Source: a virus
Taxonomy: Duplodnaviria; Caudoviricetes
Direction: 5' to 3' (one strand)
Virus record (IMG/VR): IMGVR_UViG_3300026549_000029
Location: 192,001 to 256,000 of that record
DNA length: 64,000 bases
Part shown: in pieces, positions 2,077 to 19,087 of the stretch
Layout: each line of letters starts with the position of its first letter
Position numbering within the stretch: the stretch's first letter is position 1
Made by a program: the position numbers and the translations under genes
Notes under the pieces: generated by a model
The model's input: the letters and a program-made list of their open reading frames with translations, nothing else
Told to the model about the DNA's origin: nothing
The model's database searches: none

Positions 2077-5000
2077 TTATGTATCTATAAATACATGAGC
2101 AGGAAATTCCTGAGTAATAATAGTATAACAGTTATCATAAAGTCTATATGAAGGTTCATAGAGACTTATATTATTACTTATATTCATTATAGATTCTCTA
2201 AGATTTAAAGCATAATTAAGATTAAGAGTAGATATTTTATTTAATGTATCTTTTATATTAGTAATTCTACGATATTTAGTGATAGGTTCAAATACTATAG
2301 AATTACAATATGGACAAGTAGTTGTATTAGATTCTATTTCTTTCCCACAATTAGGGCAGAAATATTTAGTACAACAAATTTCTCCATCATCTAAAGAGAG
2401 ATTCACTAATATTAAACAAGTATCTGCTATCCATTCATTAATATATTCTACTAAATACTTAGTTTCAGTCATACTATCAATAGCTTCTTCTATATTAATA
2501 TTATCTGAATATGTAATATCTACAAGCATATGTAATATAGCATCAACAGCATAAATTTCTAATTGTCTTATATAATGATTATCTGGATTGAATACATCAT
2601 CTTTAAAATAATATGTACTTCTTACATCAGCATAATCTTTAATAGCTTTATTAAAATGGGCATATTTATCAAAAGTAATAGGAACTTTATTTTCTACCCC
2701 ACAATTAGGACATACTGTATCAGAAGCACTTAATTCTGCTCCACATTGAGGGCAATAATAAATAAATTTATGTTTTCCATTATTCTCTAAAGCATTTCTA
2801 TTATTTTCATAATATTCAGAATAATTCTTTCTAAGCCACCAATCCATACTAAACCATACTTTATCTATAAGCTTAGCTCTTTCTTCTTTAGAAAGATTGA
2901 TATTAGCATTAGAAATATAATCTTCAATCTTAATAATATCAGCTTTATCAAATAAGTATTTAATTAATATATGATCTATTAATTGTATATATTGATCGAA
3001 CTTATCATCTATTACATAAATAATGGAAGACTGATGCGTAAATATTTTAAATGATTTGAAGAAGTCTATTACTTCCTCTATATAAGATTTAACAAATTCT
3101 AATGATACAGAAGGTAAACCAGAGAATACATCATCCATATATACTTCTGTCTTATCTTCATCTATATAATCTTTAATATATCCAATAATTTGTTGAATAG
3201 CATTTATACAAGTTTCTTGTCTCTTAGCTTCATCATCAATAGCAGCAACTTGTACTAAGAATTTATAAACATTTCCATCATTATATCTCATAAATTCTGT
3301 ATAAGTACTAGCCATTCTAGCAGTTGCATTTAAAGAAACAAAATCTTCATCTTCTGGATCATAAATATAAAGATCAAATAAATGAGTTTCATCAAAATCA
3401 TCTCTCATTTCAAAATATAAAGTATTTTCATCACAAGTACTAGTAAGACATTTCATATCATATTCATAGACATCAGGGTTCTGATAATTCTCTGGTCTAG
3501 GAATATTAATGAATTTAGTAGTATATCCATTAGCTTTATATGTATCTACTACATCATTATCTCCTACTAAGAAATACTCCATATTTCTATTCATAATAAA
3601 TAAAGTTTTATATAAATATCTATAAGCATCATATACTTCTTTACTAGGAGGATTAGCCATAACTTCTAATACATGTTTATAGATATCTCTGTTATTTAAA
3701 AATATAGCTCTTAATTCTTCAAAACTATATATCTTTTCATCTGGAATAGTAAATCCAGGTCTTTCTACAGCATCATGCCCATATGACAATTCTTCTAAAG
3801 TTAATCCTCTATGATTTTCATGCAAATACTGTGCTATAGTAGCAAAATCTGCTTCCATATTAAATCCTAGTATTTCTGCTACTTTAGACCTACTATCTAA
3901 AATAGTATCTTCTACTCCATAATAGATATATCCAAGAGAATATAATGCTAAAATAGCATTTACTAATTCTACTTTCTTAGTAGTAGATATATTAGGTAAG
4001 CTAATTCTTAAAGCAGATTTATCTATTTTATTATACATAAGAATATTCATAAAATAGACAAGAGAGAAATTTCTTTGTGCTAAATCTATAACAGCTTCTA
4101 TAGTATAATATTTAGATCTTAATATTGTAAAATCTAAATCTTTAACTCCAGATTTTACAGTATCATAAGTTTTATCACCAACCCAATAAGCATCAGGTAC
4201 AGTAAGCTCATCATATTCTAAAATATTAGAATCTTTCTTAGCATAATTATCATAAATTTGATCTAAAAGAGGAACTTTAATAAACTTAATATCATAATTA
4301 GAATCATTATCTGTTACTATATCTTTAGTTCCATCTTCATTAGTAATTACTTTAGTATTACTATAATAATCTAAATCGTCTGGATTATTTACATTATGAT
4401 CTTTTAAAATATAATATTTAAAAGCATTTATATTTCTAAATCCAAATATTGATATAATATCTACAATACATTTATCTGTAGATTTAAATTTAATCAATTT
4501 ATTAAGATTCTTTACAAGAGAAATTTGATATCTAAGAGGAATATCATTAAAATATTTAACCCCATTAGATTCGAAAATATATTTACAGGTTCTTGTATCA
4601 AATACATCTCTTCTAATTAAATATTCTGGTAATTCTACTATCATATCAATAATAGTTTGAATAATAAGAAATACCATCATAAAATTATCATAATAATCAG
4701 ATCTATATTTATAAGCTTCAGAATATACTGTATAAAGTAAATATAATCTATTAGCTTCTAATAAATCTTTATATCTTGTTCTTACCTCATCTGAATCACA
4801 AGAAGGACAATAAAGCATAGCAAACTTCTCTGCTACCCTAGCATCATAATAATCTACTTGCCTATCGCCCATATGAAGTAAATAAATTACATCATCTTTT
4901 GTTAATTCATTAGAAATTAGCCAAGATTCATTATTTACAATATTTTCTAATGTACCATTAGAATCAAGAATAATCTGCTTAGATAATGATAATTCATGAA

Positions 5001-5538
5001 TTAATTTATAATCTGAAATTAGATTACCATAACTATCATATTCTTCTTTATAAGTTATAGAAACATGATCAATAGAAGTAGGAATCTCTTCATCTATATA
5101 ATTATTATCTATCCAAAGACCTTCCCAGACTCCTGTCTCATCATAATTAGGTTCTCCATGAAGCATTCTATAATAATTATTATATTCTATATAATTATTC
5201 AAGAATAGTTCTTCAGCCATATTATATAACTGAGTCCTAATATCTCCTTTAGGGATCTTATCATTATCTGCAGCATATTCAATAATTTGATCCTCTGTTA
5301 ATCCAGAGATTTGTCTTAATAAAGTTTCATCATAATGAAAGTAATTAAAATTAGAATGGCCTCTCTTAATACTTATTAAAACATCTCCAGCTCTAATAGA
5401 TTCTAATGTTTCTGCATTATTAGCTCTATCTATATCTTTTAATATAGTACCAGTAGCTAATTGTCTAGCATTATAGATAATTTCATCTAATAATGGATTT
5501 TCAGTAAAAACTTTACTAGCTAAAGTTACTTTTTCCAT
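2077..5538 (-). CDS. Large virion structural protein (probable baseplate) with two zinc-ribbon inserts
   Basis: 1153 aa. The EYNNYYRMLHG motif resembles jumbo-phage structural proteins. CPQCG-x9-CPNCG and CPNCG-x9-CPYC lie near the C-terminus. GACA-N6-TA at 5565-5576. Confidence 0.6.
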   Translation of the reverse strand: MEKVTLASKVFTENPLLDEIIYNARQLATGTILKDIDRANNAETLESIRAGDVLISIKRGHSNFNYFHYDETLLRQISGLTEDQIIEYAADNDKIPKGDIRTQLYNMAEELFLNNYIEYNNYYRMLHGEPNYDETGVWEGLWIDNNYIDEEIPTSIDHVSITYKEEYDSYGNLISDYKLIHELSLSKQIILDSNGTLENIVNNESWLISNELTKDDVIYLLHMGDRQVDYYDARVAEKFAMLYCPSCDSDEVRTRYKDLLEANRLYLLYTVYSEAYKYRSDYYDNFMMVFLIIQTIIDMIVELPEYLIRRDVFDTRTCKYIFESNGVKYFNDIPLRYQISLVKNLNKLIKFKSTDKCIVDIISIFGFRNINAFKYYILKDHNVNNPDDLDYYSNTKVITNEDGTKDIVTDNDSNYDIKFIKVPLLDQIYDNYAKKDSNILEYDELTVPDAYWVGDKTYDTVKSGVKDLDFTILRSKYYTIEAVIDLAQRNFSLVYFMNILMYNKIDKSALRISLPNISTTKKVELVNAILALYSLGYIYYGVEDTILDSRSKVAEILGFNMEADFATIAQYLHENHRGLTLEELSYGHDAVERPGFTIPDEKIYSFEELRAIFLNNRDIYKHVLEVMANPPSKEVYDAYRYLYKTLFIMNRNMEYFLVGDNDVVDTYKANGYTTKFINIPRPENYQNPDVYEYDMKCLTSTCDENTLYFEMRDDFDETHLFDLYIYDPEDEDFVSLNATARMASTYTEFMRYNDGNVYKFLVQVAAIDDEAKRQETCINAIQQIIGYIKDYIDEDKTEVYMDDVFSGLPSVSLEFVKSYIEEVIDFFKSFKIFTHQSSIIYVIDDKFDQYIQLIDHILIKYLFDKADIIKIEDYISNANINLSKEERAKLIDKVWFSMDWWLRKNYSEYYENNRNALENNGKHKFIYYCPQCGAELSASDTVCPNCGVENKVPITFDKYAHFNKAIKDYADVRSTYYFKDDVFNPDNHYIRQLEIYAVDAILHMLVDITYSDNINIEEAIDSMTETKYLVEYINEWIADTCLILVNLSLDDGEICCTKYFCPNCGKEIESNTTTCPYCNSIVFEPITKYRRITNIKDTLNKISTLNLNYALNLRESIMNISNNISLYEPSYRLYDNCYTIITQEFPAHVFIDT

Positions 5539-9176: not shown

Positions 9177-9270
9177 TTTTATTCTCCTTTTATCCTATTT
9201 CAAAATAAAAATTATTTATTCTTTTATTACAATTTTATATCATCTAATTAAAAATTTTAATTTTTTAAAA

Positions 9271-9304
9271 AAATAAGAAGAGGAATATTATCCTCTTCTT
9301 ATTT
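9271..9304 (-). terminator. Intrinsic terminator
   Basis: AAATAAGAAGAGGA-atatta-TCCTCTTCTTATTT. Confidence 0.75.
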
Positions 9305-10100
9305 TTTGTCTATATATTTCTGATACTATACCTACTAAATTTCTTATTATAGATAAATTTCTATTTATATCTACAGCATATTTCATTTCTTCAGATATAT
9401 CAGGTAGTTGAACAAATCTTGAAAATGTAGGAATTATATACATAGAGAAAGCATCAAAATTTCTATAATATTCTTTTCCCAATTCTCTATTTATAAATTT
9501 ATCATACATTATAGAAATATAACTCATAGTATCTTCTATTTTTTCTCTTTGTAATCTTCTACATATTTCACAAATAATATCTAATATTCCATATTCATGT
9601 AATATTAAATTATTATCTCCTATACCTTTAATATCGATATTTATATTGAATTCACCATTTATAAAATTATCTGAATAATATACCTCTAATTCTTGTAATT
9701 GCAAAAATATATTATATTCATTTTTAATTACAAATTTAAAAGGTGGAAATTCTGTATAAGGCAATAATTTACCTACAATAAATACTGCATCGTTTTTAAT
9801 AGATACTATATCTATATCTTCTAAATTATTAGATATAAATAATTTTCTTTTTGCTTCTTTAATACCTGTTTGAATATTAGTATAAATAGATCTATCTCTG
9901 GATATCATTTTTCCGATAATAACTTCTCTTTCTTTTTTATCCATATTATAGAATCTATCATATTCATCTTTAGATAATATTTTTTGATATAATAAAGCAT
10001 TTATATTTGCTTTAGATAAATCATATTCTCGTATATAAGTATTAATAAAATATTTTATTGGAGTTTTATAATTTATATTTCTCCATAATTCAGAAGCCAT
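9288..10100 (-). CDS. Minimal family-B DNA polymerase palm-like protein
   Basis: Motif A-like IREYDLSKAN and motif C-like IVSIKNDAVF in only 270 aa; no exonuclease domain. Confidence 0.6.
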   Translation of the reverse strand: MASELWRNINYKTPIKYFINTYIREYDLSKANINALLYQKILSKDEYDRFYNMDKKEREVIIGKMISRDRSIYTNIQTGIKEAKRKLFISNNLEDIDIVSIKNDAVFIVGKLLPYTEFPPFKFVIKNEYNIFLQLQELEVYYSDNFINGEFNINIDIKGIGDNNLILHEYGILDIICEICRRLQREKIEDTMSYISIMYDKFINRELGKEYYRNFDAFSMYIIPTFSRFVQLPDISEEMKYAVDINRNLSIIRNLVGIVSEIYRQKIRRG

Positions 10101-10110
10101 TATTCTTTAC

Positions 10111-10551
10111 CTATTTATTATTGACAGTGGATAATGCTCTATAAATTGAACTATTAATTCTATTACTAAAATCTCTATCCTCTGTAATAAGATTTGAAAA
10201 TGCCCTAGCATATGCTTGAGCAAATTGACCAATTAAGATTTCTTTTATATCTTCATTAAGAATTTTTATATATTTTTCTTTAACATCTTTCATTTCTTCT
10301 GAAAAATCTATTTGATTTATTATTTTCTTAAGTTCTAATGAAGGTCCTAAAGAACTAGGTCCACTATATCTGAAACTAGTTTCTGTAAAATAATTCTTAA
10401 TTACATCATCTTTCATAAGATATTCCTTAAGAATATCTTTTACAATTATTTTTAAATCTTCATCAGATACACTATGAATAATTTTATTAAGTTCTGTCCC
10501 AAGATCAGAAGATTTAAATAATTCATCATCAATATTCAACACAAGCTGCAT
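10111..10551 (-). CDS. Hypothetical protein
   Basis: 146-aa ORF with SD in a tightly packed operon. Confidence 0.7.
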   Translation of the reverse strand: MQLVLNIDDELFKSSDLGTELNKIIHSVSDEDLKIIVKDILKEYLMKDDVIKNYFTETSFRYSGPSSLGPSLELKKIINQIDFSEEMKDVKEKYIKILNEDIKEILIGQFAQAYARAFSNLITEDRDFSNRINSSIYRALSTVNNK

Positions 10552-10565
10552 AATTATTTTCTCCT

Positions 10566-10814
10566 TTATATATCATCATTTTCATCAGGTAATTCAATTA
10601 CTTCTACTAGCCTATTACATTCTGGACAATGATAAGAATAATTAATAGATCTTTTCTTAAAAAAGAATCCATATCTTGAAATAGTAATATTTAAATCTTT
10701 ATCATTATCTTTTACTTTAAATTTGCATTCACAATTTGGATTTTCACAAGTAAAATAAATAAACTTATTTCTTTTATCAGATAATTTACCATGCTCTATA
10801 ATCTCAGCAGGCAT
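10566..10814 (-). CDS. Small zinc-ribbon protein
   Basis: CENPNC...CPEC; SD GGAGG. Confidence 0.7.
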   Translation of the reverse strand: MPAEIIEHGKLSDKRNKFIYFTCENPNCECKFKVKDNDKDLNITISRYGFFFKKRSINYSYHCPECNRLVEVIELPDENDDI

Positions 10815-10816
10815 GA

Positions 10817-11317
10817 CTATATTCCTCCAGCTACAATTTTATTTTCTTCACATATTTGAAGAAATCTTTTTCTATCTTCATCAAATGTAACAATACCTTG
10901 TACTGTCATAAAATCACAGCCATCATGTGAAATATAAAAATAATCTTCAGGATCATTTATAATAGAATATTTAATATCATATCTAGTTTGAATCAATTTC
11001 ATAAATGATTCATTAACCATAGATATTCCATTATCATATGAATATTCTGATATACAGATATAGACTTTTTGTCCATTATAAATGCAATCTAAAATTGACA
11101 TTAATGAAGAACAAGCAATCGGATCATTTAATACATAATCATAATACCAAAGATCAAATTGATATTCATATCCTGTTGGATCTTGTGTCATACTAGTAGC
11201 ATAATTAGGAATCATTAATAAACCAGGCAATCTTTCGATTGCCTGATTCTGAGAAGATAAATTAAATACTGTAAAAGTATTATCTGGTATTGCTCTATAA
11301 GGACCAAATATTAACAT
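10817..11317 (-). CDS. Hypothetical protein, paralog of 11534..12244 (possible DUF488-like fold)
   Basis: FDLWYYDYV...NGQKVYICI...QTRYDI aligns with FIQAYNEYL...GGNILLNI...YTRYGI. Confidence 0.6.
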   Translation of the reverse strand: MLIFGPYRAIPDNTFTVFNLSSQNQAIERLPGLLMIPNYATSMTQDPTGYEYQFDLWYYDYVLNDPIACSSLMSILDCIYNGQKVYICISEYSYDNGISMVNESFMKLIQTRYDIKYSIINDPEDYFYISHDGCDFMTVQGIVTFDEDRKRFLQICEENKIVAGGI

Positions 11318-11523
11318 TCTATCTCCTTATCTTCATCATCTGCTGGTACACCATTAAGAAAATCTTCAATAACAAAAGCTATTTGATTAGGTGTAAATGA
11401 CAATTGTCTATAGAATTTACCATTAATAAATACATCACCAATAGCATCAATACGTACAGTAAATTCTATTGGACCTACAATCTTTTCTCTGTTTAAAAAG
11501 TTATCTTTAGTTTCATTATCCAT
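11311..11523 (-). CDS. Hypothetical protein
   Basis: Start moved to MDNETK, which has SD AAGGAG. Confidence 0.6.
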   Translation of the reverse strand: MDNETKDNFLNREKIVGPIEFTVRIDAIGDVFINGKFYRQLSFTPNQIAFVIEDFLNGVPADDEDKEIEC

Positions 11524-11533
11524 AGTAGTCTCC

Positions 11534-12244
11534 TTAATATTGATCAAAATATATAACTGGTTTAGTGATAGGAATACCAGTTGTTATATAAGCTTCCTTC
11601 ATAATTGTATATAATTCCATCGGATCATTATCTGGTCCAGAAAAGACCATAAGATCATCAACAATTTGATTATATAAAATTGGAGGAAATGTTGGATACG
11701 GATTAGTATTACAATTAATAAAATCGAATACATCTACCATCTTCTTTTGATATAACAAAGTTATGATAATGTCATCATATTTATCATCATATGCAAAATA
11801 ACTTTGATCCATTATTCCCATACTAATTCCATATCTTGTATAAAAGAACATCATTAAAGTATGAACCCAAATAGGTTCATCTTCTAAATAAGAGGGAATA
11901 TTTAATAAAATATTCCCTCCAATATGCATAAAATACAGCATAGTAGCTATGAATTCTTGAACAGAATCATCATACTCAAGATATTCATTATAAGCTTGGA
12001 TAAATCCTTCTTGATCTCCATCAATTTCTTTATACATCGCTAATGGAGGTGGACATAATAAAGTAGCTTTCATGGCTTTATCTGGAAACATCTGTTCAAG
12101 TTCATCAGAAGTTTCATCCATATCCATGCATAAAATTCTATTAGGTCCAGGCCCAGCTTTTGGTGGAAAATATATAGCAAGATTATGCTTAGTTGTTTCT
12201 ATATGATTTGCATCCATTAAATAGATACTTCCTAAGATAGTCAT
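11534..12244 (-). CDS. Hypothetical protein (possible DUF488-like fold)
   Basis: LLCPP...FIQAYNEYL...GGNILL pattern. Confidence 0.6.
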   Translation of the reverse strand: MTILGSIYLMDANHIETTKHNLAIYFPPKAGPGPNRILCMDMDETSDELEQMFPDKAMKATLLCPPPLAMYKEIDGDQEGFIQAYNEYLEYDDSVQEFIATMLYFMHIGGNILLNIPSYLEDEPIWVHTLMMFFYTRYGISMGIMDQSYFAYDDKYDDIIITLLYQKKMVDVFDFINCNTNPYPTFPPILYNQIVDDLMVFSGPDNDPMELYTIMKEAYITTGIPITKPVIYFDQY

Positions 12245-12323
12245 AATGTTCTTCCCTCTTAAATATTCTATAGTGATTAATAATCATGTTTATCGAGATA
12301 TCTCCTTTTAATATTTATCACTA

Positions 12324-14510
12324 TTATAATACATCAATGACAGAAGGTTTGCTTACTGATTTCTTAAGAGCATCTATAATAGCTGCATCATCATCTTCTT
12401 CATAAGGAATATTTGAAGTATCTACAGAGGTAGATTTACTTTTTCCAGATTCTTCATTAGAATCAGAAGAAGATTCTTCTTCATCTTCATAATATTCTTC
12501 ATCGTCATAGAGATAAGAAATATTTCCTTCTTCATCTATATCAATACTATATAATTTTCCTTCATAGGTTCCATAAAGATCATACAAAGATCTATCAATA
12601 ATTGCAAGGTTTTCAATATATTCAGTATGATTTTGATTTTCGAAGTCATTTCCTCCAGTATAAATAGCATAAATTATAGAATCTTCATAAATAGATTCAT
12701 TAGGAAATTCTCCAACAAATCTTACTTCATAATATTCTTTATCATCATCTTCTTCAGAAGTAATTTCTTGATCTACTTCTTCAGTTTCTTTTTTAGTTTC
12801 TTCCTCTTCTACTTTATCTTCAATAAGATTAGTGGATTCAGTAGATACTTCAACTTCTGTAGTTACTATAGGAGAAACTGACTTAATTATTTCTACTGCT
12901 GCATTATAAGTATCAGTAATCTTTTTAGATTCCTCCTCAGTAAGAGAATTAATAATATCCTGTTTCTCTTCTTCAGGAGCAGTAGAAGTAATTACTTCTT
13001 CTTCAATAGGCTTTTTAGTAGTTTCTGATGCAGAATCTGTAGTAATAACTACTTCTTCCTTAATAGGTTCAACTATAGTAGTAGATTTAGCACTAAATTT
13101 CTTTACTTCAGATTCAGGAATAGAGATTTTCTTTACTTTAATTACACTAGGTTTAATGGTATCATCTTTTTTAGTATTAATATCATTTGCAGAACTAGTA
13201 TTAATATTAGTATTTCCTACAATCTTGTTTACTACTACATCAGGTTTATTTCTAACTACAGTAGATTTTTTATTATCTACATAGCTACCTACATTTCTAA
13301 CCTTTTTATTCTTAAACTGGTTAGAATCATTAGGTTTAATCTTTCTCTTTACTTTGATAAGCTTAGGATCAATAGCACTAGGCTTATCATCAGATTTTGG
13401 AGGGGTCTCATATCTAAGATCAATACCTACATATTTAACTACTTCTTTTTCAGTAGTATTATTAGTCTGCTGCTGATTAGTAGTATTTCCTTTAGCTTTA
13501 ATAATAATAGTACTTCCATCTACACTAAAAGGATTTTCTGTATGTTCAAGAGTAGTTACTTTCTTAACCTTAATAAGTTTAGCAGGACGTACTTTATATT
13601 TATCTTCAGTCTTAACATACTTAGGTTTATTACGTTCTTTTCTTGTAAGATAATCTACTTCACTACCAGTTTCGATAGTTTTGATAATCTTATCCCCTCT
13701 CTTAAGACTAAATTTCATTCTTGCTTCTCCTTTCCTTCTTGTTATACTAGCTCCACTTTCTGGAGTTTTTGCTAAATCTCCTGCTCTATAAATTCTACCA
13801 CATTTTGTGCATCGTATTTCATCAAATGTTTTAGTATAATCTATCTCTCCATTACAGATAGTTCCATCATCTAATATATTCTTACAGGTCAACTTAGAAC
13901 CATCAATCTCATACATATATGGAAAGTCTAATATAACTAATCCTTTTCCTTTCCATATACCATAATTCATGAAATACTTTGCTCCAATATCATCAAATAC
14001 ATGTTTACCATCAACTAATACTTCCATTAGCAATATATAATCATCCAATACACTTAAAAATTCTTCTTCACTAGTAATCTTTTCAACTCTCTGAAAAGAA
14101 GCAATAGTTCCACATGGGGAACATTGAAATACCTTTGTACAAAAAGGTTTTAATAATTTCTGATTATAATATTCTGAAGGATTATCTCTAATACCTACAG
14201 CATCTACTGCTACTTTAAACACCATATTTGGTGCCATTGGATGTATATAAACTAGTCGATTGGTTCCTCCAGCAAATTTAGTAAAATTTCTAAATTTCAT
14301 TATCTCATCTATTTTAGAGATCCTTAGTCTGGAATTTCCAGAATATCTTGCTGAAGTAATTATTCCATGTATATAATCAATATCTTCTTGTGTGACAAGC
14401 TGATATAAATCAACATCTGGAGTTAATTGTTCCCATTCAAATTCCATTGGAGTAGTAGTACCAGTGAATAATAATCTTTCAAGAATATTCACTCTTTCTG
14501 ATTCTTTCAT
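12324..14510 (-). CDS. Atypical Ser/Thr protein kinase with zinc finger and long disordered basic-then-acidic tail
   Basis: Gly loop FAGGTNRLVY, VFKVA lysine, helix-C Glu (NPSE), catalytic DIGAKYFMN, VILDF, followed by C-x9-C...CTKC. Confidence 0.75.
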   Translation of the reverse strand: MKESERVNILERLLFTGTTTPMEFEWEQLTPDVDLYQLVTQEDIDYIHGIITSARYSGNSRLRISKIDEIMKFRNFTKFAGGTNRLVYIHPMAPNMVFKVAVDAVGIRDNPSEYYNQKLLKPFCTKVFQCSPCGTIASFQRVEKITSEEEFLSVLDDYILLMEVLVDGKHVFDDIGAKYFMNYGIWKGKGLVILDFPYMYEIDGSKLTCKNILDDGTICNGEIDYTKTFDEIRCTKCGRIYRAGDLAKTPESGASITRRKGEARMKFSLKRGDKIIKTIETGSEVDYLTRKERNKPKYVKTEDKYKVRPAKLIKVKKVTTLEHTENPFSVDGSTIIIKAKGNTTNQQQTNNTTEKEVVKYVGIDLRYETPPKSDDKPSAIDPKLIKVKRKIKPNDSNQFKNKKVRNVGSYVDNKKSTVVRNKPDVVVNKIVGNTNINTSSANDINTKKDDTIKPSVIKVKKISIPESEVKKFSAKSTTIVEPIKEEVVITTDSASETTKKPIEEEVITSTAPEEEKQDIINSLTEEESKKITDTYNAAVEIIKSVSPIVTTEVEVSTESTNLIEDKVEEEETKKETEEVDQEITSEEDDDKEYYEVRFVGEFPNESIYEDSIIYAIYTGGNDFENQNHTEYIENLAIIDRSLYDLYGTYEGKLYSIDIDEEGNISYLYDDEEYYEDEEESSSDSNEESGKSKSTSVDTSNIPYEEDDDAAIIDALKKSVSKPSVIDVL

Positions 14511-16378
14511 GCTTGTTTATACTCCATTTGAATATGATTTGGATTTTGATTGAATCTCTTTTGTATAATTTCTCTCATCTCTTTTAATCTTTTTTCAAGA
14601 TCATTATCACTATAAGCAGAAACATTTAACTGTTTATTCTTTCCTGCTTCTATCATTATTCCATCAGGACCTATACTCCTATTACTTGGAGGAGTTTGTC
14701 TAAGTTCGCTAAAATTTATCATAAGAGATTCAGGATGATCTGGTGGTGTAAAAGGTATACCAGCTCTATTTTGTTCATAAGCAGATTTAAAAGCTTCTTC
14801 TAAAGTTAATACCTCCATATCTTTATTTTCTGGTATAACAGTTTCAGTATTAATAAAATTTACTTTACCAATTTTTCTATCTATAGCATTTTTATAACTC
14901 TTAGAATTATACTTTAATTTGCCATTTCGTTTCATTTGTCTCATCTCTTGTACCTTATTACTAGATACAATATTATGAGCATTAGTCAGATATGTAGATA
15001 AATCATAAGATTCACCAGGCTTTACTCCTAATGCTGCATCATGAGATTCTTTGATCTTCCACTTCATCATATTTCTGAAGACATTAAATTGATACATCTG
15101 ACGATCAAAGTTTTCAACTTGAATAGCAAGATTATTAGTTTCCATAATTCTTATATTTTCATAATATGTTTTCTTCTCCTCTTCTGTTGCACTATAGATA
15201 TTAAAAGGTTTAGGCTGATTAGCAGCAAAAGCTTCTCTAGCTTTATTATATTCTCTTAAAGGATCAAATCTTTCTTTTACTTCTTGTTCATCAAATTTTT
15301 CATTATTATAAGCATGAACAATTCTAGATATATTAGCAAAATGATTTATATAATTATTTCTAGCAGCTTCTGCAGCTTCTTGCATCTGCTGATTTGCAGC
15401 ATAATAATTATTAAATATAGGTCTACCATAATAATCTCTGCCTATTACTACAGCTCTATTATTATGATTAATTTTTTCTCTTTCCTCATCAGTAAGAACA
15501 ATCCCTTCAAGCATTTCACTTACATCTATAGGACTATTCTTATAAGGTTCATCACTATAGAGAACATCTCTGAGATAATCATCAAACTCATTCATAGCAT
15601 ATCCATGTACACCATATAATGAAGTATTATTCATATTGGCAATATAATTATTACCAAATCCTTGGTGTATAGGAAACTGCTGAAGAGGCTGTTGAGGAAT
15701 CATTGTAGGCTGAGGATAGAAAGGAGTCTGCCCATTAGGATAAGAATAAGTTCCAGTATTAGCATTATATTCAGCTTTAGGATCTCTATATCCAATTACA
15801 TTATTAGGCTGACCAGGATTAATTGTATTAGTATTTATACCAATATTATTTCTAGATTCAAAAGATGGACTTTTTACAGTTTCTACAGATATTTCTCCTG
15901 TAGCAGGATTATATCCACCACCTTTTTTGAGAATAGCACCAGAATTCATATCAAGTCTATCTATAGTACCATCTCCTTTTTCTAATTCAATATAACCAGT
16001 TTTCTGTCCAGGTACATAAGGAGAATATATCCCCTTGCTGTAAGGCTCTAAAGGATTATCTGGACCAGCTTTTAAGGGCTTATCATTTGTAATAAACTGA
16101 TAAGTTTCATTATCAAAATATCCACCATTTTGCTGCATCTCTAATTGCTGCTGTGGTGTAGGCATAGGCGGAGAATACATACTATTCATAGTATTAGGAA
16201 TAGTATTATACATCATAGGTTGCTGCATAACAGGCTGTTGATACTGTTGATACATATTATATCCAAAAGTTGTAATTTGTGGTGGATATCCATTAGGATA
16301 TCCACCATTAGTATTATTAGATTCATAGCCATTATTATATATAGGCTGTGTATTTTCATAATTAATAGGTGCTAACAT
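14507..16378 (-). CDS. Protein with N-terminal Q/N/P/Y/M-rich prion-like domain
   Basis: YNMYQQYQQPVMQQPMMYN..., PTPQQQLEMQQNGGY. Its stop overlaps the kinase start (ATGA). Confidence 0.75.
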   Translation of the reverse strand: MLAPINYENTQPIYNNGYESNNTNGGYPNGYPPQITTFGYNMYQQYQQPVMQQPMMYNTIPNTMNSMYSPPMPTPQQQLEMQQNGGYFDNETYQFITNDKPLKAGPDNPLEPYSKGIYSPYVPGQKTGYIELEKGDGTIDRLDMNSGAILKKGGGYNPATGEISVETVKSPSFESRNNIGINTNTINPGQPNNVIGYRDPKAEYNANTGTYSYPNGQTPFYPQPTMIPQQPLQQFPIHQGFGNNYIANMNNTSLYGVHGYAMNEFDDYLRDVLYSDEPYKNSPIDVSEMLEGIVLTDEEREKINHNNRAVVIGRDYYGRPIFNNYYAANQQMQEAAEAARNNYINHFANISRIVHAYNNEKFDEQEVKERFDPLREYNKAREAFAANQPKPFNIYSATEEEKKTYYENIRIMETNNLAIQVENFDRQMYQFNVFRNMMKWKIKESHDAALGVKPGESYDLSTYLTNAHNIVSSNKVQEMRQMKRNGKLKYNSKSYKNAIDRKIGKVNFINTETVIPENKDMEVLTLEEAFKSAYEQNRAGIPFTPPDHPESLMINFSELRQTPPSNRSIGPDGIMIEAGKNKQLNVSAYSDNDLEKRLKEMREIIQKRFNQNPNHIQMEYKQA

Positions 16379-16469
16379 ATTTTATTTTCTCCTTTAATAT
16401 TATAAATATAATTTTTCTCCTTTTTTAAAAGTTATAAGATTTATAATTTTTAATTCCAGATTCTATTTA

Positions 16470-16486
16470 ATCATATTTATAATATT
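16470..16486 (-). promoter_or_regulatory. Putative early promoter
   Basis: AATATTATAAATATGAT, a variant of the 17-mer. Confidence 0.5.
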
Positions 16487-16501
16487 TATCTGATTCTAAT
16501 T

Positions 16502-17380
16502 TTAGCTAAGCTTAGTTGGATAGTCAAAATTAGGAATAGAAACTCCTAATTTTTTAGACAGAAACTCAGCAGGATTATAAAGAATATCAAAGTTTTCAAT
16601 AATATTATTAGAGAAAGTGCTAGCCTCATATGTAAATCCAAGCATCATAGAGCTAAACTCATCTTCAAGGAAACTAAACATTTCTAATACAATACCGTTT
16701 CCATTTCTTGTAACTTCTTCACTTTCACATAAAGTAGTAAGTTCATTTCTAAGATTATTATAAATCTTAACTCCACAAGAATTTACATAAGAAACAGCAA
16801 AACTCATTACATTATCATACATATCTACTTTAGTTTTAGGATTAGTAGAAATATAAGCAACAATAGCTCTTGCTAATGATTCTCTATCAATAAAATGATA
16901 TCCAGCACTAAAAGAAAAATAACTGATAAAACGAGAATCTACAGTATTTTCTTTTGAATAGTCGCTACCATCCATAATCCTTTTGATAAAAGGTTTAAAT
17001 TTATTATTAAGCTCATTAATCTTGACAGAATACAGATTATCTAAAGTAAGCATAAAGTTATCAATACACATACACATAGTAGTAGATACAATCATGCTAA
17101 GTGTATTAAGATCAAATCTCAAAGTATCAGAATTAACATCCTGAAGAATAAGATCAGAAGTTTTAATTCCAATAGTTGCAAATACATTGTAAATATTATT
17201 AGGAATATTTACAACTCCATTAGGTGTATAAAGATTAAAATCATCATATCTAATAGCAATATTAGGAAGCTTAATTACATTGTTATTAATTACATCAGTA
17301 TTGGGTGCAGTTACTGCTTTAGATTTACAATCTTCACAGTTACAATTCTGAATGTGAATAGGTCTGATTTTGTTATCCAT
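16502..17380 (-). CDS. Hypothetical protein
   Basis: 292-aa ORF with SD AAGGAG and an N-terminal HxxxCxCxxC cluster. Confidence 0.75.
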   Translation of the reverse strand: MDNKIRPIHIQNCNCEDCKSKAVTAPNTDVINNNVIKLPNIAIRYDDFNLYTPNGVVNIPNNIYNVFATIGIKTSDLILQDVNSDTLRFDLNTLSMIVSTTMCMCIDNFMLTLDNLYSVKINELNNKFKPFIKRIMDGSDYSKENTVDSRFISYFSFSAGYHFIDRESLARAIVAYISTNPKTKVDMYDNVMSFAVSYVNSCGVKIYNNLRNELTTLCESEEVTRNGNGIVLEMFSFLEDEFSSMMLGFTYEASTFSNNIIENFDILYNPAEFLSKKLGVSIPNFDYPTKLS

Positions 17381-17404
17381 TTTTATTTTCTCCTTTTTTG
17401 TTAT

Positions 17405-17620
17405 TTATTTAAGATTTTTTAATATACAAATTATAATTATTGTACAAATTATAATACTAACTGCTATTGTATGTATTTTTAAAAAATCAGTAATAGTAGT
17501 TGGATATTTTTTATTTTTAAAAATATATATTTGTAGTATAATTCCATAAATAATTAAAGTATATATTATACTAATTATAAGCGATATAATCATACTAAGT
17601 ATAAGTAGTATAGGATTCAT
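17405..17620 (-). CDS. Small membrane protein
   Basis: Two hydrophobic segments; ATGA coupling to the upstream gene. Confidence 0.55.
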   Translation of the reverse strand: MNPILLILSMIISLIISIIYTLIIYGIILQIYIFKNKKYPTTITDFLKIHTIAVSIIICTIIIICILKNLK

Positions 17621-17889
17621 TTTTTATTTTCATTTCCTTTATAATTAGCATCAAGAATAGATTCATAAAGTCCTTCATATTCATCCATATCAAGATTATA
17701 ATGATTCTTAAAAATAATTTTAAAAGCAATATATTGTTTAGCCATAATTTTTCGTATATTAATATTTTCATCTAATACATTATACAAAGTTCTACTCATA
17801 TCAGCTTGAATAGCAATAAGAATACCAACAAGTATACCTATAGCAATTAATGCTGCTACAGCAAACTCAACAACTATTTTTACATCCAT
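17617..17889 (-). CDS. Membrane-anchored hypothetical protein
   Basis: N-terminal TM helix; SD AAGGA. Confidence 0.65.
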   Translation of the reverse strand: MDVKIVVEFAVAALIAIGILVGILIAIQADMSRTLYNVLDENINIRKIMAKQYIAFKIIFKNHYNLDMDEYEGLYESILDANYKGNENKK

Positions 17890-17934
17890 AATTATAAATT
17901 CCTTTCTTAAAAACTTATTATTTATAAAGTAGCT

Positions 17935-18384
17935 TCAAATTTCATAACTTAATAAATTTATTAATTTATGCACTTCATATTCTGAAAATGTAATAGTATT
18001 ATTATCTATATTATTTAATACAGATATTTGAATGAAATTATTAGGTAATTTAAATAAAGATATAATACTTGGAGTCATCATATCATTTGAATAAACATCT
18101 TTTATTGTTAATAGTAATATTTTATTATTTGTTTGTTTTTCATTTTGCAATAATTGTAATAAACCATATTTTAATTTATAACAAGTATCAGTAGAAAATT
18201 TTAAATTCAATACTTTAACTCCAGTTATATTATCATAAAATGATAAATTATGTAATAATGTTGTTATAAATCTTCTTTCAGGAATTGTATCATCATAATC
18301 ATAATCTGTTATTTTAGTAGGCATATCTATATTATAAATTAAATTATAATTTATTAGTTTTAATTTATAAATTTTATTACTCAC
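17935..18384 (-). CDS. Hypothetical protein
   Basis: 149 aa; GTG start overlapping the RNase H stop, SD AGGAG. Confidence 0.6.
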   Translation of the reverse strand: MSNKIYKLKLINYNLIYNIDMPTKITDYDYDDTIPERRFITTLLHNLSFYDNITGVKVLNLKFSTDTCYKLKYGLLQLLQNEKQTNNKILLLTIKDVYSNDMMTPSIISLFKLPNNFIQISVLNNIDNNTITFSEYEVHKLINLLSYEI

Positions 18385-19087
18385 AATTATCTCCTTTTAC
18401 AAGTTTATAATACTGGTCAGTATTAAAATTTGCATATCCTATAGATAATACTAGTTTCAAATTATCAGTAAAATATATTGGATTAGTTATATTTTTATAA
18501 AGCATATCTGTAGAATATTTATCTACAAAATTATTATAATTTGATATCATGTAAATAAGTGCATCATCTACATATTCATTTATATTATTAGATGATTTAA
18601 AAACTTTTCTAGCATATATTGCATCTTCATAAGATTTTTTAACATGTCCTTTTACATGATAGAGTTCAATGGGCGTATCATTAGATAAAATATAATATAC
18701 TATATCCATAATATAATCTTGATTTTTAATAAATCCATTATCTCCTAGAATATTTTTCCCTTCATTAGTTTGTCTAACCCATTTAAATATTCTATCTCTA
18801 ATTCCAAATATTGACACCTGTGAATCTGAGAATAATCTAATATGTTTAAAATTTCTGTAAAAATAAGATTTCATAATTCCTAATAGAATAGCATATAATT
18901 CTCCTTGTTGAGTCGTAGAATTATGTAAAATATAAAAATCTTGATAAACTAATTTTGTACCAATATAAATACATATAGCAGGAGCTGTAACTCCTATAGC
19001 GATATTTTTATCTTTTGACATATTTTTAAAACTAGAATCTGTAAAAATACAAACTGATTCGTTATTAAATAAATCTTGTACAGTCAT
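18377..19087 (-). CDS. rnhA: Ribonuclease HI
   Basis: IFTDSS, TTQQGELYAI, FSDSQ, HVKGH and NNFVD form the RNase HI catalytic motifs. Confidence 0.9.
   Translation of the reverse strand: MTVQDLFNNESVCIFTDSSFKNMSKDKNIAIGVTAPAICIYIGTKLVYQDFYILHNSTTQQGELYAILLGIMKSYFYRNFKHIRLFSDSQVSIFGIRDRIFKWVRQTNEGKNILGDNGFIKNQDYIMDIVYYILSNDTPIELYHVKGHVKKSYEDAIYARKVFKSSNNINEYVDDALIYMISNYNNFVDKYSTDMLYKNITNPIYFTDNLKLVLSIGYANFNTDQYYKLVKGDNCE

Follow-up and report, generated by a model that had tools for sequence, protein, structure and literature searches.

A predicted kinase with a charge-blocked tail and its coupled prion-like partner in uncultured gut and rumen jumbo phages

The locus, its promoter and its surroundings

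The window, i.e. the whole stretch of 64,000 nucleotides that was analysed (positions 192,001 to 256,000 of IMG/VR record IMGVR_UViG_3300026549_000029), carries on its minus strand the open reading frames P0001 (623 aa) and P0002 (728 aa), listed with their features in Table 1. Both share an ATGA overlap, so that the coupling proposed in the initial annotation is borne out by the ORF coordinates. RNA-library contigs (metatranscriptomes, 2 studies) covered the boundary between P0001 and P0002 together with the gene that follows, with DNA carry-over being possible. The downstream genes were syntenic in relatives; their earlier labels 'DUF488-like' and 'PolB-like' were not confirmed, as neither was backed by a Pfam match and 9288..10100 matched only a PHROG of unknown function. 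The syntenic block flanking the operon starts with an RNase H gene, which likewise bears an early promoter. Virion genes located in the window include a tape-measure-like ORF of 3919 aa, the beta subunit of the virion RNAP and a structural gene product with a match to phrog_20751, and in one relative a prohead protease was found a few kb upstream.

Table 1. Coordinates of the two genes and their features within the window
Feature	Position	Strand	Basis
P0001, whole ORF	14507..16378	minus	ORF reading
P0002, whole ORF	12324..14510	minus	ORF reading
Predicted early-type (virion-RNAP-type) promoter	16472..16490	minus	sequence read; analogy to AR9 consensus
P0001 residues 1-255, prion-like N/P/G/Y/Q/M-rich, charge-poor region	15614..16378	minus	composition, AF2 pLDDT, alignment A2
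P0001 residues 256-623, helical C-half	14510..15613	minus	AF2, alignments A2/A3
P0002 residues 1-205, helical region (1-75), then minimal protein-kinase-like core	13896..14510	minus	AF2, Foldseek, VIA, BFVD, hhalign, conservation
P0002 residues 206-246, Cys4 zinc ribbon (C209, C219, C234, C237)	13773..13895	minus	conservation, weak Pfam matches
P0002 residues ~250-500, beta-hairpin, then Lys-rich basic block	13011..13763	minus	composition, alignments A1/A4
P0002 residues 501-728, acidic block	12327..13010	minus	composition, conservation

The early-type promoter assumed in front of P0001 was recovered as ATATTAT (16485-16479), followed by 6 nt and a G at 16472, the predicted start site, which gives a predicted leader of 94 nt up to the P0001 ATG at 16378. 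Genome-wide, the motif (A/G)ATATTATAAT(A/T)(A/T)TGAA was enriched upstream of ~32 genes, and both this motif and the P0001 promoter match the AR9 early consensus, AAATATATATTAT-N6-G (PMC5312081). No late-type motif was seen in the operon leader. Judged by analogy of promoter type, the operon would be expressed early. The S+T content of the predicted early proteins was lower (10.5% vs 12.6%, p = 0.002), which says little, since a high S/T content is usual for late structural proteins in any case.

The promoter also bears on a reading of P0001 and P0002 as virion cargo, i.e. internal head or ejected proteins whose charged tail would condense or mimic DNA in the capsid. Highly charged, disordered proteins are common as head cargo, and the richness of the window in virion genes as well as the prohead protease of the one relative would suit such a role, but the early-type promoter, a leader in which no late-type motif was seen and a flanking block that begins with an early-promoter RNase H argue against it; this explanation is considered very improbable.

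The kinase-like protein and its charge-blocked tail

P0002 had no Pfam or PHROG match. Its first ~250 aa were predicted to fold into a minimal protein-kinase-like domain, with a Cys4 zinc ribbon behind it (AF2 model of the kinase part, mean pLDDT 77.5). The best Foldseek matches in the PDB were RIO2, PknB and PRPK (best E 2.3e-4), and nearly all of the top 50 were kinase-like, the exception being one row titled only pre-ribosome particle. The 50 best VIA-wide matches were kinase-like throughout (Z 6.0-7.1, 129-177 residues aligned), and the BFVD matches included T7-type phage kinases with E 5e-6 and above. The model shows the bilobal kinase fold of the PKL superfamily at modest scores (Foldseek E ~1e-4, TM ~0.35, Z at most 7.1) and with a truncated C-lobe.

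The kinase signature consists of GTNR 82-85 (Gly-rich loop), K99, E113, D174, N182 and D195-F-P, with E113 assigned as the alphaC Glu by its position in the model (helix 111-120). K99, E113, D174 and D195 were invariant in 133/133 family members at 25-54% identity, N182 was kept in 130/133, and G82-T-N-R85, K99 and E113 were invariant in 132-133 of 133, as expected of the Gly-loop, beta3 Lys and alphaC Glu in the PKL superfamily; the Gly-rich loop and Lys line up with the corresponding ones in T7K and YrbL. D174 lies 8 residues before N182 (D-x7-N), compared with 5 in canonical kinases (D-x4-N), so that the catalytic loop is atypical; counted back from N182, position 5 holds Ala or Ile and position 4 varies (K, D or N). 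The distance from N182 to D195, the counterparts of the metal-binding Asn and the DFG Asp, is 13 residues, the same as in T7K. A spacing of 13 is also known from PKA (N171 to D184).

The four cysteines of the zinc ribbon were invariant in 133/133 members, and weak zinc-ribbon Pfam matches (Trm112p, ADK_lid, Zn_Ribbon_TF) occurred in many of them. The ribbon directly follows the DFP motif, at the usual place of the kinase activation segment, which it may replace in a C-lobe that would have been cut down. The Zn finger of the initial annotation was confirmed, and its kinase, invisible to Pfam and PHROGs, was supported by fold and invariant residues. P0002 probably has catalytic activity as an atypical Ser/Thr(/Tyr) protein kinase. 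Its family is large (1345 clusters at 50% identity), comes from metagenomes only and has no members among GenBank phages; it is probably a previously undescribed one, distantly akin to T7 gp0.7 (T7K) and YrbL.

As the zinc ribbon directly follows DFP, the C-lobe is without the usual helices that bind a protein substrate, which would also suit a kinase-fold enzyme acting on a non-protein substrate (nucleic acid, nucleotide, sugar or lipid) or performing another ATP transfer, e.g. AMPylation, with DNA or RNA held by zinc ribbon and basic tail. The atypical D-x7-N loop, fold matches of equal rank to aminoglycoside, macrolide and ethanolamine kinases, and the match to the minimal RNA kinase Ark1 (8yv5_B: Z 6.1, rmsd 3.6, 129 residues aligned) are in line with this. 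However, the minimal protein kinases NleH, OspG, HopBF1 and Bud32 match equally well, the best sequence links lead to YrbL and to T7K, for which protein kinase activity is proven, and the tightly coupled, Tyr/Thr-rich partner fits a protein substrate or regulator, so that a non-protein substrate is regarded as quite improbable.

The tail of P0002 begins with a hairpin (M265..RGD..) that is conserved in alignment A1. The subsequent basic block (net charge +3 to +8 per 50 aa over ~250-500) carries 3 copies of P-x-(L/V)IKVK(K/R) at a spacing of exactly 72 residues (alignment A4); it is present in many, not all, family members, and nucleic-acid targeting through it therefore cannot be universal. 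The acidic block has a net charge of -8 to -16 per 50 aa and contains a small conserved aromatic-rich module (~590-672, nt 12495-12743) as well as the C-terminal motif LKKS.(K)KPS[IV]xD[LV]L (711-728, nt 12327-12380), both of which were kept across divergent members, with the module being duplicated in one. Charge segregation in the tail was far beyond that of shuffles (SCD z = -15.7) and S+T amounted to 18%, in agreement with the K-rich, then E/D-rich tail full of S/T that had been described at the outset. Among 119 family tails, the median SCD z was -7, with z below -3 in 75%. K exceeded R (K/(K+R) 0.81) and E exceeded D (E/(E+D) 0.61), at a charged fraction of 0.36.

The prion-like partner, its pairing with the kinase and possible roles

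P0001 had no match to curated families (Pfam, PHROG). Low complexity and disorder were gauged from plain amino-acid composition and from AF2 pLDDT <50, values of the latter kind extending across most of residues 1-270. The composition of residues 1-255 is N33 P30 G25 Y24 Q23 T20 M12 with 12% charged residues, and its 31 aromatics have an average spacing of 8. The best 100-aa window consists to 69% of G/P/Q/N/Y/M (proteome median 32%, 95th percentile 42%), which ranks P0001 second most extreme among the 245 proteins of the proteome and bears out the ~260 aa of Q/N/P/Y/M/G-rich low complexity noted initially within its 623 aa. Orthologues keep the composition of this N-half, not its sequence, apart from conserved islands in alignment A2: GGYPxGYPP (25-33), GG(Y/F)NPVTG (154-160) and, at ~120-140, a beta-hairpin-like YxPG..GYxExE..DG. 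P0001 accordingly shows the polar, low-charge, compositionally conserved sequence with spaced aromatics that defines prion-like domains of the sticker-spacer type.

The C-half forms long helices (325-358, 399-450 and 460-484; AF2 pLDDT 70-86 for 330-490) and contains the conserved motif KIKESHDxxLGxxPGE (442-455), in which H446 and P454 were invariant in the 17-row alignment A2 and P454 alone in the 25-row alignment A3. Fold searches with this half were uninformative (Foldseek E>1; VIA Z<=6.1, generic helical hairpins).

The pair was found in the cattle-gut giant phage and in hundreds of uncultured relatives. In 29/30 related loci, down to 26% kinase identity, a low-complexity partner gene was located directly upstream of the kinase gene (overlapping or within 13 nt), and conserved pairing, whose absence the initial annotation had named as a refutation of the proposed condensate system, consequently holds. 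The partner was homologous by iterated HMM in 18/30 loci; its maximum G/P/Q/N/Y/M fraction per 100 aa was 0.47-0.84 in 29 loci vs a proteome 95th percentile of 0.42. Complex prediction for P0001 and the P0002 kinase domain yielded an ipSAE of 0.58 (3 runs, 0.53-0.62), compared to 0.00 for the best control, with a partner pLDDT of at least 72 and a contact agreement of at least 26%, a score that falls in the weak-support band. The model suggests that the helical C-half of P0001 probably binds the kinase domain, and a joint action of the two proteins is probable.

The preferred explanation, which is given an about even chance of being correct, is a T7K-like kinase module with two subunits that is expressed early in a large clade of uncultured jumbo phages from gut and rumen. 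P0001 would be made in step with P0002 through the ATGA overlap, and the disordered regions of both proteins would have been selected for composition, not sequence. The Tyr/Gln/Asn/Pro/Gly/Met 'sticker' region of P0001 and the Lys-block/Glu-block tail of P0002 would most likely serve to concentrate, direct or hold back the kinase; the basic block could, for instance, place it on nucleic acid, or the conserved C-terminal motif could place it on partners. Meanwhile, P0002 would phosphorylate proteins of host and phage during the first minutes after infection, in the manner of T7K.

The same regions allow for a condensate, in which P0001, probably together with a second prion-like early protein, would scaffold a membraneless replication, transcription or assembly factory; the P0002 tail would co-partition, and the kinase, by phosphorylating the disordered regions, would tune how the factory assembles or dissolves. 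The second protein (304 aa, genome positions 67631-68545) has a Q/P/M/N/G/Y tail of ~130 aa without charges and was retained in 5/5 complete relatives. The aromatic-rich, charge-poor composition of the partner in every orthologue despite sequence drift, the conserved charge segregation of the tail with a grammar as in giant-virus factory scaffolds (PMC12415211) and the phage precedent of SPO1 Gp27 (PMC13401047) are consistent with a condensate. Furthermore, the search for chimallin and PhuZ advised by the initial annotation detected neither: the complete genome gave nothing with PF25677 and phiKZ gp054 (chimallin, of which a very divergent form could escape) nor with PF00091 (tubulin), and PF25677 gave nothing in 5 complete relatives. 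The shell protein and PhuZ tubulin genes of a chimallin-type phage nucleus were thus both missing from the matches, the absence of a Phikzvirus-type chimallin being judged from a single Pfam model plus a single sequence. On the other hand, composition alone over-predicts phase separation, the conserved short islands and folded half of the partner fit specific binding equally well, and no motif shared between P0001 and P0002 rose above shuffle level in this phage. The condensate is considered rather unlikely as an explanation, and a T7K-like takeover kinase with targeting or regulating disordered parts accounts for the locus equally well or better, although both can coexist.

In its wider form, the proposal would be that, in a large clade of uncultured jumbo phages with AR9-type RNA polymerases and without detectable chimallin, early infection is organised by a phosphorylation-tuned condensate. 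Its components would be at least two conserved prion-like early proteins, namely P0001 and the 304-aa protein, and the diblock-polyampholyte tail of the dedicated zinc-ribbon kinase. This is judged unlikely; if true, bacterial viruses would possess an equivalent of eukaryotic viral factories.

Comparison with known systems

T7K is an early kinase that is directed to nucleic-acid-binding proteins by a DNA-binding domain at the C terminus, and A0A7L7SMK1, which has been named as its homologue (PMC13645617), was among the BFVD structural matches of P0002. With hhalign, NFTKFAGGTNRLVYIHPMAPNMVFKV of P0002 aligned to a 26-residue T7K segment (E=5.9e-4), the overall alignment being confined to the N-lobe (T7K residues 11-105, probability 29%). 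Both are phage early genes, T7K by experiment and P0002 by promoter type. In each, a helical region at the N-terminus precedes a kinase N-lobe of the shared pattern G.G.....Y.HP..PN.V.KV, 13 residues separate Asn from Asp, the DFG is non-canonical (DPV in T7K, DFP/DYP in the P0002 family), and the C-terminal part is non-catalytic and could guide the enzyme, that of T7K binding DNA. Unlike T7K, P0002 has a zinc ribbon after the DFG-like motif, a D-x7-N catalytic loop, a low-complexity partner gene that is obligate and translationally coupled and, instead of a shut-off domain, a charge-blocked disordered tail (200-800 aa) with a conserved C-terminal motif; its host phages are jumbo phages with AR9-type RNA polymerases. 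Membership in the T7 gp0.7 family was rejected, given the absence of a PHROG or Pfam match and the restriction of the hhalign alignment to the N-lobe. Of the hallmarks of that family, DPV is replaced by D-F/Y-P, and in place of the C-terminal shut-off/DNA-binding domain P0002 has a tail in which hhalign found no similarity to the T7K C-terminus. On sequence grounds, P0002 would be a distant relative of T7K at best.

For E. coli YrbL, hhalign gave E=0.07, and weak matches to Pfam YrbL-PhoP_reg (PF10707, kinase-like clan) were obtained in 28/41 members (E 0.03-0.1, below the curated cut-off). The likeness lies in the stretch from Gly-loop to Lys (GTGRHRKCYAHPED...IKIV in YrbL, GGTNRLVYIHPMAP...FKVA in P0002), whereas YrbL is without zinc ribbon, tail or partner. 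RIO2, Bud32/PRPK, NleH, OspG and HopBF1 resemble P0002 in fold class, small size and reduced C-lobe, and differ by lacking the zinc-ribbon insertion and the tail; sequence kinship to these minimal atypical kinases was not detectable by HMMER.

P0001 shares the Tyr-spaced, polar, low-charge composition of FUS/hnRNPA1-type low-complexity domains. SPO1 Gp27 forms phage condensates, with phase separation organising the phage programme (PMC13401047); it has no homology to P0001 or P0002, and its case is without a kinase. Giant-virus factory scaffolds contain charge-segregated disordered regions that favour K above R and E above D, and vaccinia H5 (B1/F10 kinases) is heavily phosphorylated, which modulates its DNA binding (PMC12415211). 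H5 and the giant-virus factory scaffolds OLS1/ILS1 are early proteins of viruses whose disordered regions are charge-segregated and rich in K and E (PMC12415211), and the strong segregation with K>R and E>D recurs in the P0002 tail as a resemblance of grammar only. They come from eukaryotic viruses and share no homology with P0002, in which, by contrast, the kinase itself bears the charge-patterned region and the partner is aromatic, polar and 'prion-like'.

Kinase-like domain of P0002

P0002 (kinase-like core, Cys4 zinc ribbon and disordered tail) probably represents a new, active family of the kinase-like superfamily, as judged from residue conservation and a predicted structure. Neither P0002 nor its partner P0001 gave a significant match in Pfam or PHROGs. 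Searches of 50,697 GenBank phage records with tblastn (E ≤ 1), using P0001, P0002, the kinase domain and a distant family member as queries, returned no match, and the kinase-family HMM profile matched none of the PDB sequences. For the first 290 residues of P0002, 396 close relatives were found, and a profile of these relatives collected 1345 clusters (50% identity), of which 729 had E ≤ 1e-30. Metagenomes of cattle and of the Hadza human gut are among the sources, with contigs reaching ~280 kb; the family has no cultured member. No description of the family was found in the literature searched.

The AF2 model of the kinase domain (mean pLDDT 77.5) was matched by Foldseek to RIO2, PknB and PRPK at E ~2e-4, and the best 50 matches of an exhaustive VIA search were all kinase-like folds (Z 6.0–7.1). 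Matches to T7-type phage kinases were obtained in BFVD at E values of 5e-6 and above. Using hhalign, the N-terminal helices and Gly-loop-to-Lys segment were aligned to T7 gp0.7, the protein kinase of phage T7 (T7K), with E = 5.9e-4 and to E. coli YrbL with E = 0.07; weak matches to the YrbL Pfam family came from 28 of 41 kinase-family members. Among 133 members (25–54% identity), GTNR82–85, K99, E113, D174, D195 and Cys209/219/234/237 were invariant, and N182 was retained in 130. The fold, the signature residues and the four cysteines support the initial annotation of a kinase with a Zn finger. The N182–D195 spacing of 13 is that of T7K, and the equivalent Asn–Asp spacing in PKA is also 13; the invariant D174 lies 8 residues ahead of N182, not the 5 of canonical kinases. 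The DFG equivalent is D-F/Y-P, directly followed by the Cys4 zinc ribbon, at a position where kinases usually have their activation segment and substrate-binding helices. In T7K, by comparison, DPV is found at the DFG position (PMC13645617). We conclude that the family is distantly related to both T7K and YrbL but belongs to neither.

Partner protein, disordered tail and pairing

Residues 1–255 of P0001 consist mainly of N, P, G, Y, Q, T and M. Within this region 31 residues are aromatic and 12% are charged, and the best 100-aa stretch of the protein contains 69% G/P/Q/N/Y/M (proteome median 32%, 95th percentile 42%). Within this half, invariant islands were recognized (GGYPxGYPP, GG(Y/F)NPVTG and a hairpin-like segment). 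The C-terminal half is helical (pLDDT 70–86 for residues 330–490) and carries the motif KIKESHDxxLGxxPGE. No fold was assigned to P0001, because the mean pLDDT of its AF2 model was 49.8, Foldseek gave E > 1 only, and VIA matches (Z ≤ 6.1) were confined to generic helical hairpins. An ESM Atlas feature search with the C-terminal half gave no usable match, and the single match of the partner HMM to PDB sequences (E = 0.05) was taken as chance.

At word level, only 16 relatives of P0001 were found. Conserved gene pairing, set beforehand as a test of the proposed system, held: a G/P/Q/N/Y/M-rich protein was encoded directly 5' of the kinase, overlapping or at most 13 nt away, in 29 of 30 related loci, the remaining locus being cut by a contig end. 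The maximum G/P/Q/N/Y/M fraction per 100 aa in these 29 partners was 0.47–0.84, and 18 of the 30 upstream partners were joined into one family by an iterated HMM. Translational coupling is conserved, and pairing of P0001 with P0002 was therefore likely beforehand. Complex prediction of P0001(255–623) with the kinase domain gave an ipSAE of 0.58 (three runs, 0.53–0.62; three controls 0.00), a band that gives weak support and is more often wrong than right unless pairing is likely beforehand; the partner had a pLDDT of 72 or more, and contacts agreed to 26% or more. Fused partner–kinase proteins of more than 1275 aa were not found, which is weak evidence.

In the tail of P0002, which contains 18% S+T, a net basic stretch (residues ~250–500) is followed by a strongly acidic one (500–728), and the charges are segregated to an extreme degree, with a sequence charge decoration z of −15.7 relative to shuffles. 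Across the family, tail length varies from ~170 to 790 aa; charge blockiness is kept (z < −3 in 75% of 119 tails), with K preferred over R and E over D, and the acidic block is universal, whereas the basic block is not. Further conserved elements are a beta-hairpin behind the zinc ribbon (M265..RGD), an aromatic-rich module of ~75 aa in the acidic block (about residues 590–672 of P0002), which is duplicated in one member, and a C-terminal motif (residues 711–728 of P0002) with the general form LKxS(x)KxS[LIV]xD[LIVM][LM]. In this phage, P-x-(L/V)IKVK(K/R) occurs three times in the basic block at a spacing of exactly 72 residues, and a fourth, acidic repeat unit may follow.

Locus organization and promoters

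The virus record is complete (single contig, 287,868 bp, 27.7% GC). The anatomy of the pair had been described accurately, since the ORFs, their ATGA overlap of stop and start, the composition of P0001 and the charge and S+T content of the P0002 tail were all recovered; GGAG lies 11 nt 5' of the P0002 start. The labels "DUF488-like" and "PolB-like" for downstream genes found no such match in Pfam. No convincing intrinsic terminator was detected within the operon or just 3' of it, and the window contained no tRNA genes. GATAAATATTA, present on either side of the operon, was rejected as a signal because it has only 6 copies in the genome, in inconsistent contexts. Several giant ORFs are found in the window, mostly virion genes; one virion structural protein (phrog_20751) bears two C-terminal zinc-ribbon domains (residues 927–948 and 1060–1079). 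A syntenic block kept in distant relatives has the order RNase H, ~150–170 aa, ~290 aa, partner, kinase, ~235, ~165, ~148 and ~270 aa, the last being phrog_21037; RNase H is its only family assignment.

Features of the gene pair and related elements (window positions unless stated otherwise)
Feature	Position	Strand	Description
P0001	14507..16378	minus	ORF, 623 aa
P0002	12324..14510	minus	ORF, 728 aa
P0002 repeats	13011-13620	minus	three imperfect 72-residue repeats, P-x-(L/V)IKVK(K/R) in the same phase in each, residues 296-511
Early-type promoter motif	16485..16472		ATATTAT-N6-G, 94 nt ahead of P0001 ATG; predicted start at 16472
Syntenic block	9288-19087	minus	nine genes
phrog_20751	2077-5538	minus	virion structural protein, 1153 aa
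AT-rich element	9177-9266	minus	also at four other genomic places
Late-type motif, 5' of	22437, 23274, 24094	minus	examples
Late-type motif, 5' of	62956	plus	example
Contig breaks	15330-15500		all four metatranscriptome runs
Clustered substitutions	14863-14945, 15479-15605		variant metatranscriptome contigs
Second prion-like protein	genome 67631-68545	plus	304 aa, outside the window

The most enriched non-RBS word 5' of genes in this genome was (A/G)ATATTATAAT(A/T)(A/T)TGAA, and this early-type motif precedes ~32 transcription units genome-wide, including RNase H just upstream of the operon. The P0001 promoter motif agrees with AAATATATATTAT-N6-G, the experimentally defined early (virion RNAP) consensus of phage AR9 (PMC5312081), and from the sequence we infer that the operon would be expressed early. 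Many other genes are preceded by a distinct late-type motif, roughly AAC(T)..N..TTAATAAT, which often lies directly 3' of a hairpin and T-run terminator and resembles the AR9 late motif AACA-N6-TA; AACT..N..TTAATAAT was not found in the operon leader. A further conserved element, long and AT-rich, AAAA(G/A)TTAA(T/A)ATTTTTAATTA(G/T)ATGATATAA..., is located 5' of five genes; it differs from both motifs and could represent an operator or a third class of promoter.

In two bovine-gut studies, metatranscriptome contigs were identical over the operon region, and single contigs ran from the 3' half of P0001 through P0002 into the next gene, which indicates presence and bridging in RNA libraries only, without ends, strand or level and with DNA carry-over possible. 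Since contigs broke where the low-complexity part of P0001 is encoded, and variants carried clustered substitutions, strain variation in its disordered half is suggested. Early proteins showed a small S+T difference (p = 0.002); S/T/Y depletion was dropped as evidence, being confounded by S/T-rich structural proteins.

Functional readings and related systems

As the safest mechanistic reading, to which we give about an even chance, P0001 and P0002 would be the two subunits of an early, T7K-like kinase module, in which the disordered regions would target, concentrate or restrain the kinase. Action of P0002 on a non-protein substrate appears improbable, and still less can be said for P0001 and P0002 as virion cargo, which we hold very improbable.

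The initial annotation had proposed a phosphorylation-regulated condensate, which we consider unlikely. It is compatible with every feature found and gains some support from the conserved grammar of the disordered regions, although composition is its sole basis. A second prion-like early protein also speaks for it: a folded N-terminal part with a CxCxxC knuckle precedes a ~130-aa Q/P/M/N/G/Y tail with zero charged residues, its promoter is the same early variant as that of P0001, and the protein, tail included, is kept in all five complete relatives. It had no Pfam match, and the best ungapped 10-mers common to P0001, P0002 and this protein were no better than those of shuffles. The lack of chimallin is a further point in favour; in the search proposed at the outset, neither chimallin (Pfam PF25677, phiKZ gp054) nor tubulin (PF00091) was found in the genome, and PF25677 was lacking in the five complete relatives. 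SPO1 Gp27 (PMC13401047) and the factory scaffolds of giant viruses (PMC12415211) are precedents. Because the prion-like partner is obligate and a second prion-like early protein is conserved, the phage would offer a concrete case in which to ask if condensates are used by phages without a protein-shell nucleus, and if these condensates are under the control of a viral kinase.

If the kinase assignment is true, a new family of 1345 clusters (50% identity), with no match in Pfam, PHROGs or GenBank phages, would be added, with a new architecture of kinase core, zinc ribbon replacing the activation segment, charge-blocked tail and C-terminal motif. Phage protein kinases, for which a broad anti-defence role has recently been demonstrated (T7K, Nature 2026), would as a class be greatly enlarged and extended to gut and rumen jumbo phages.
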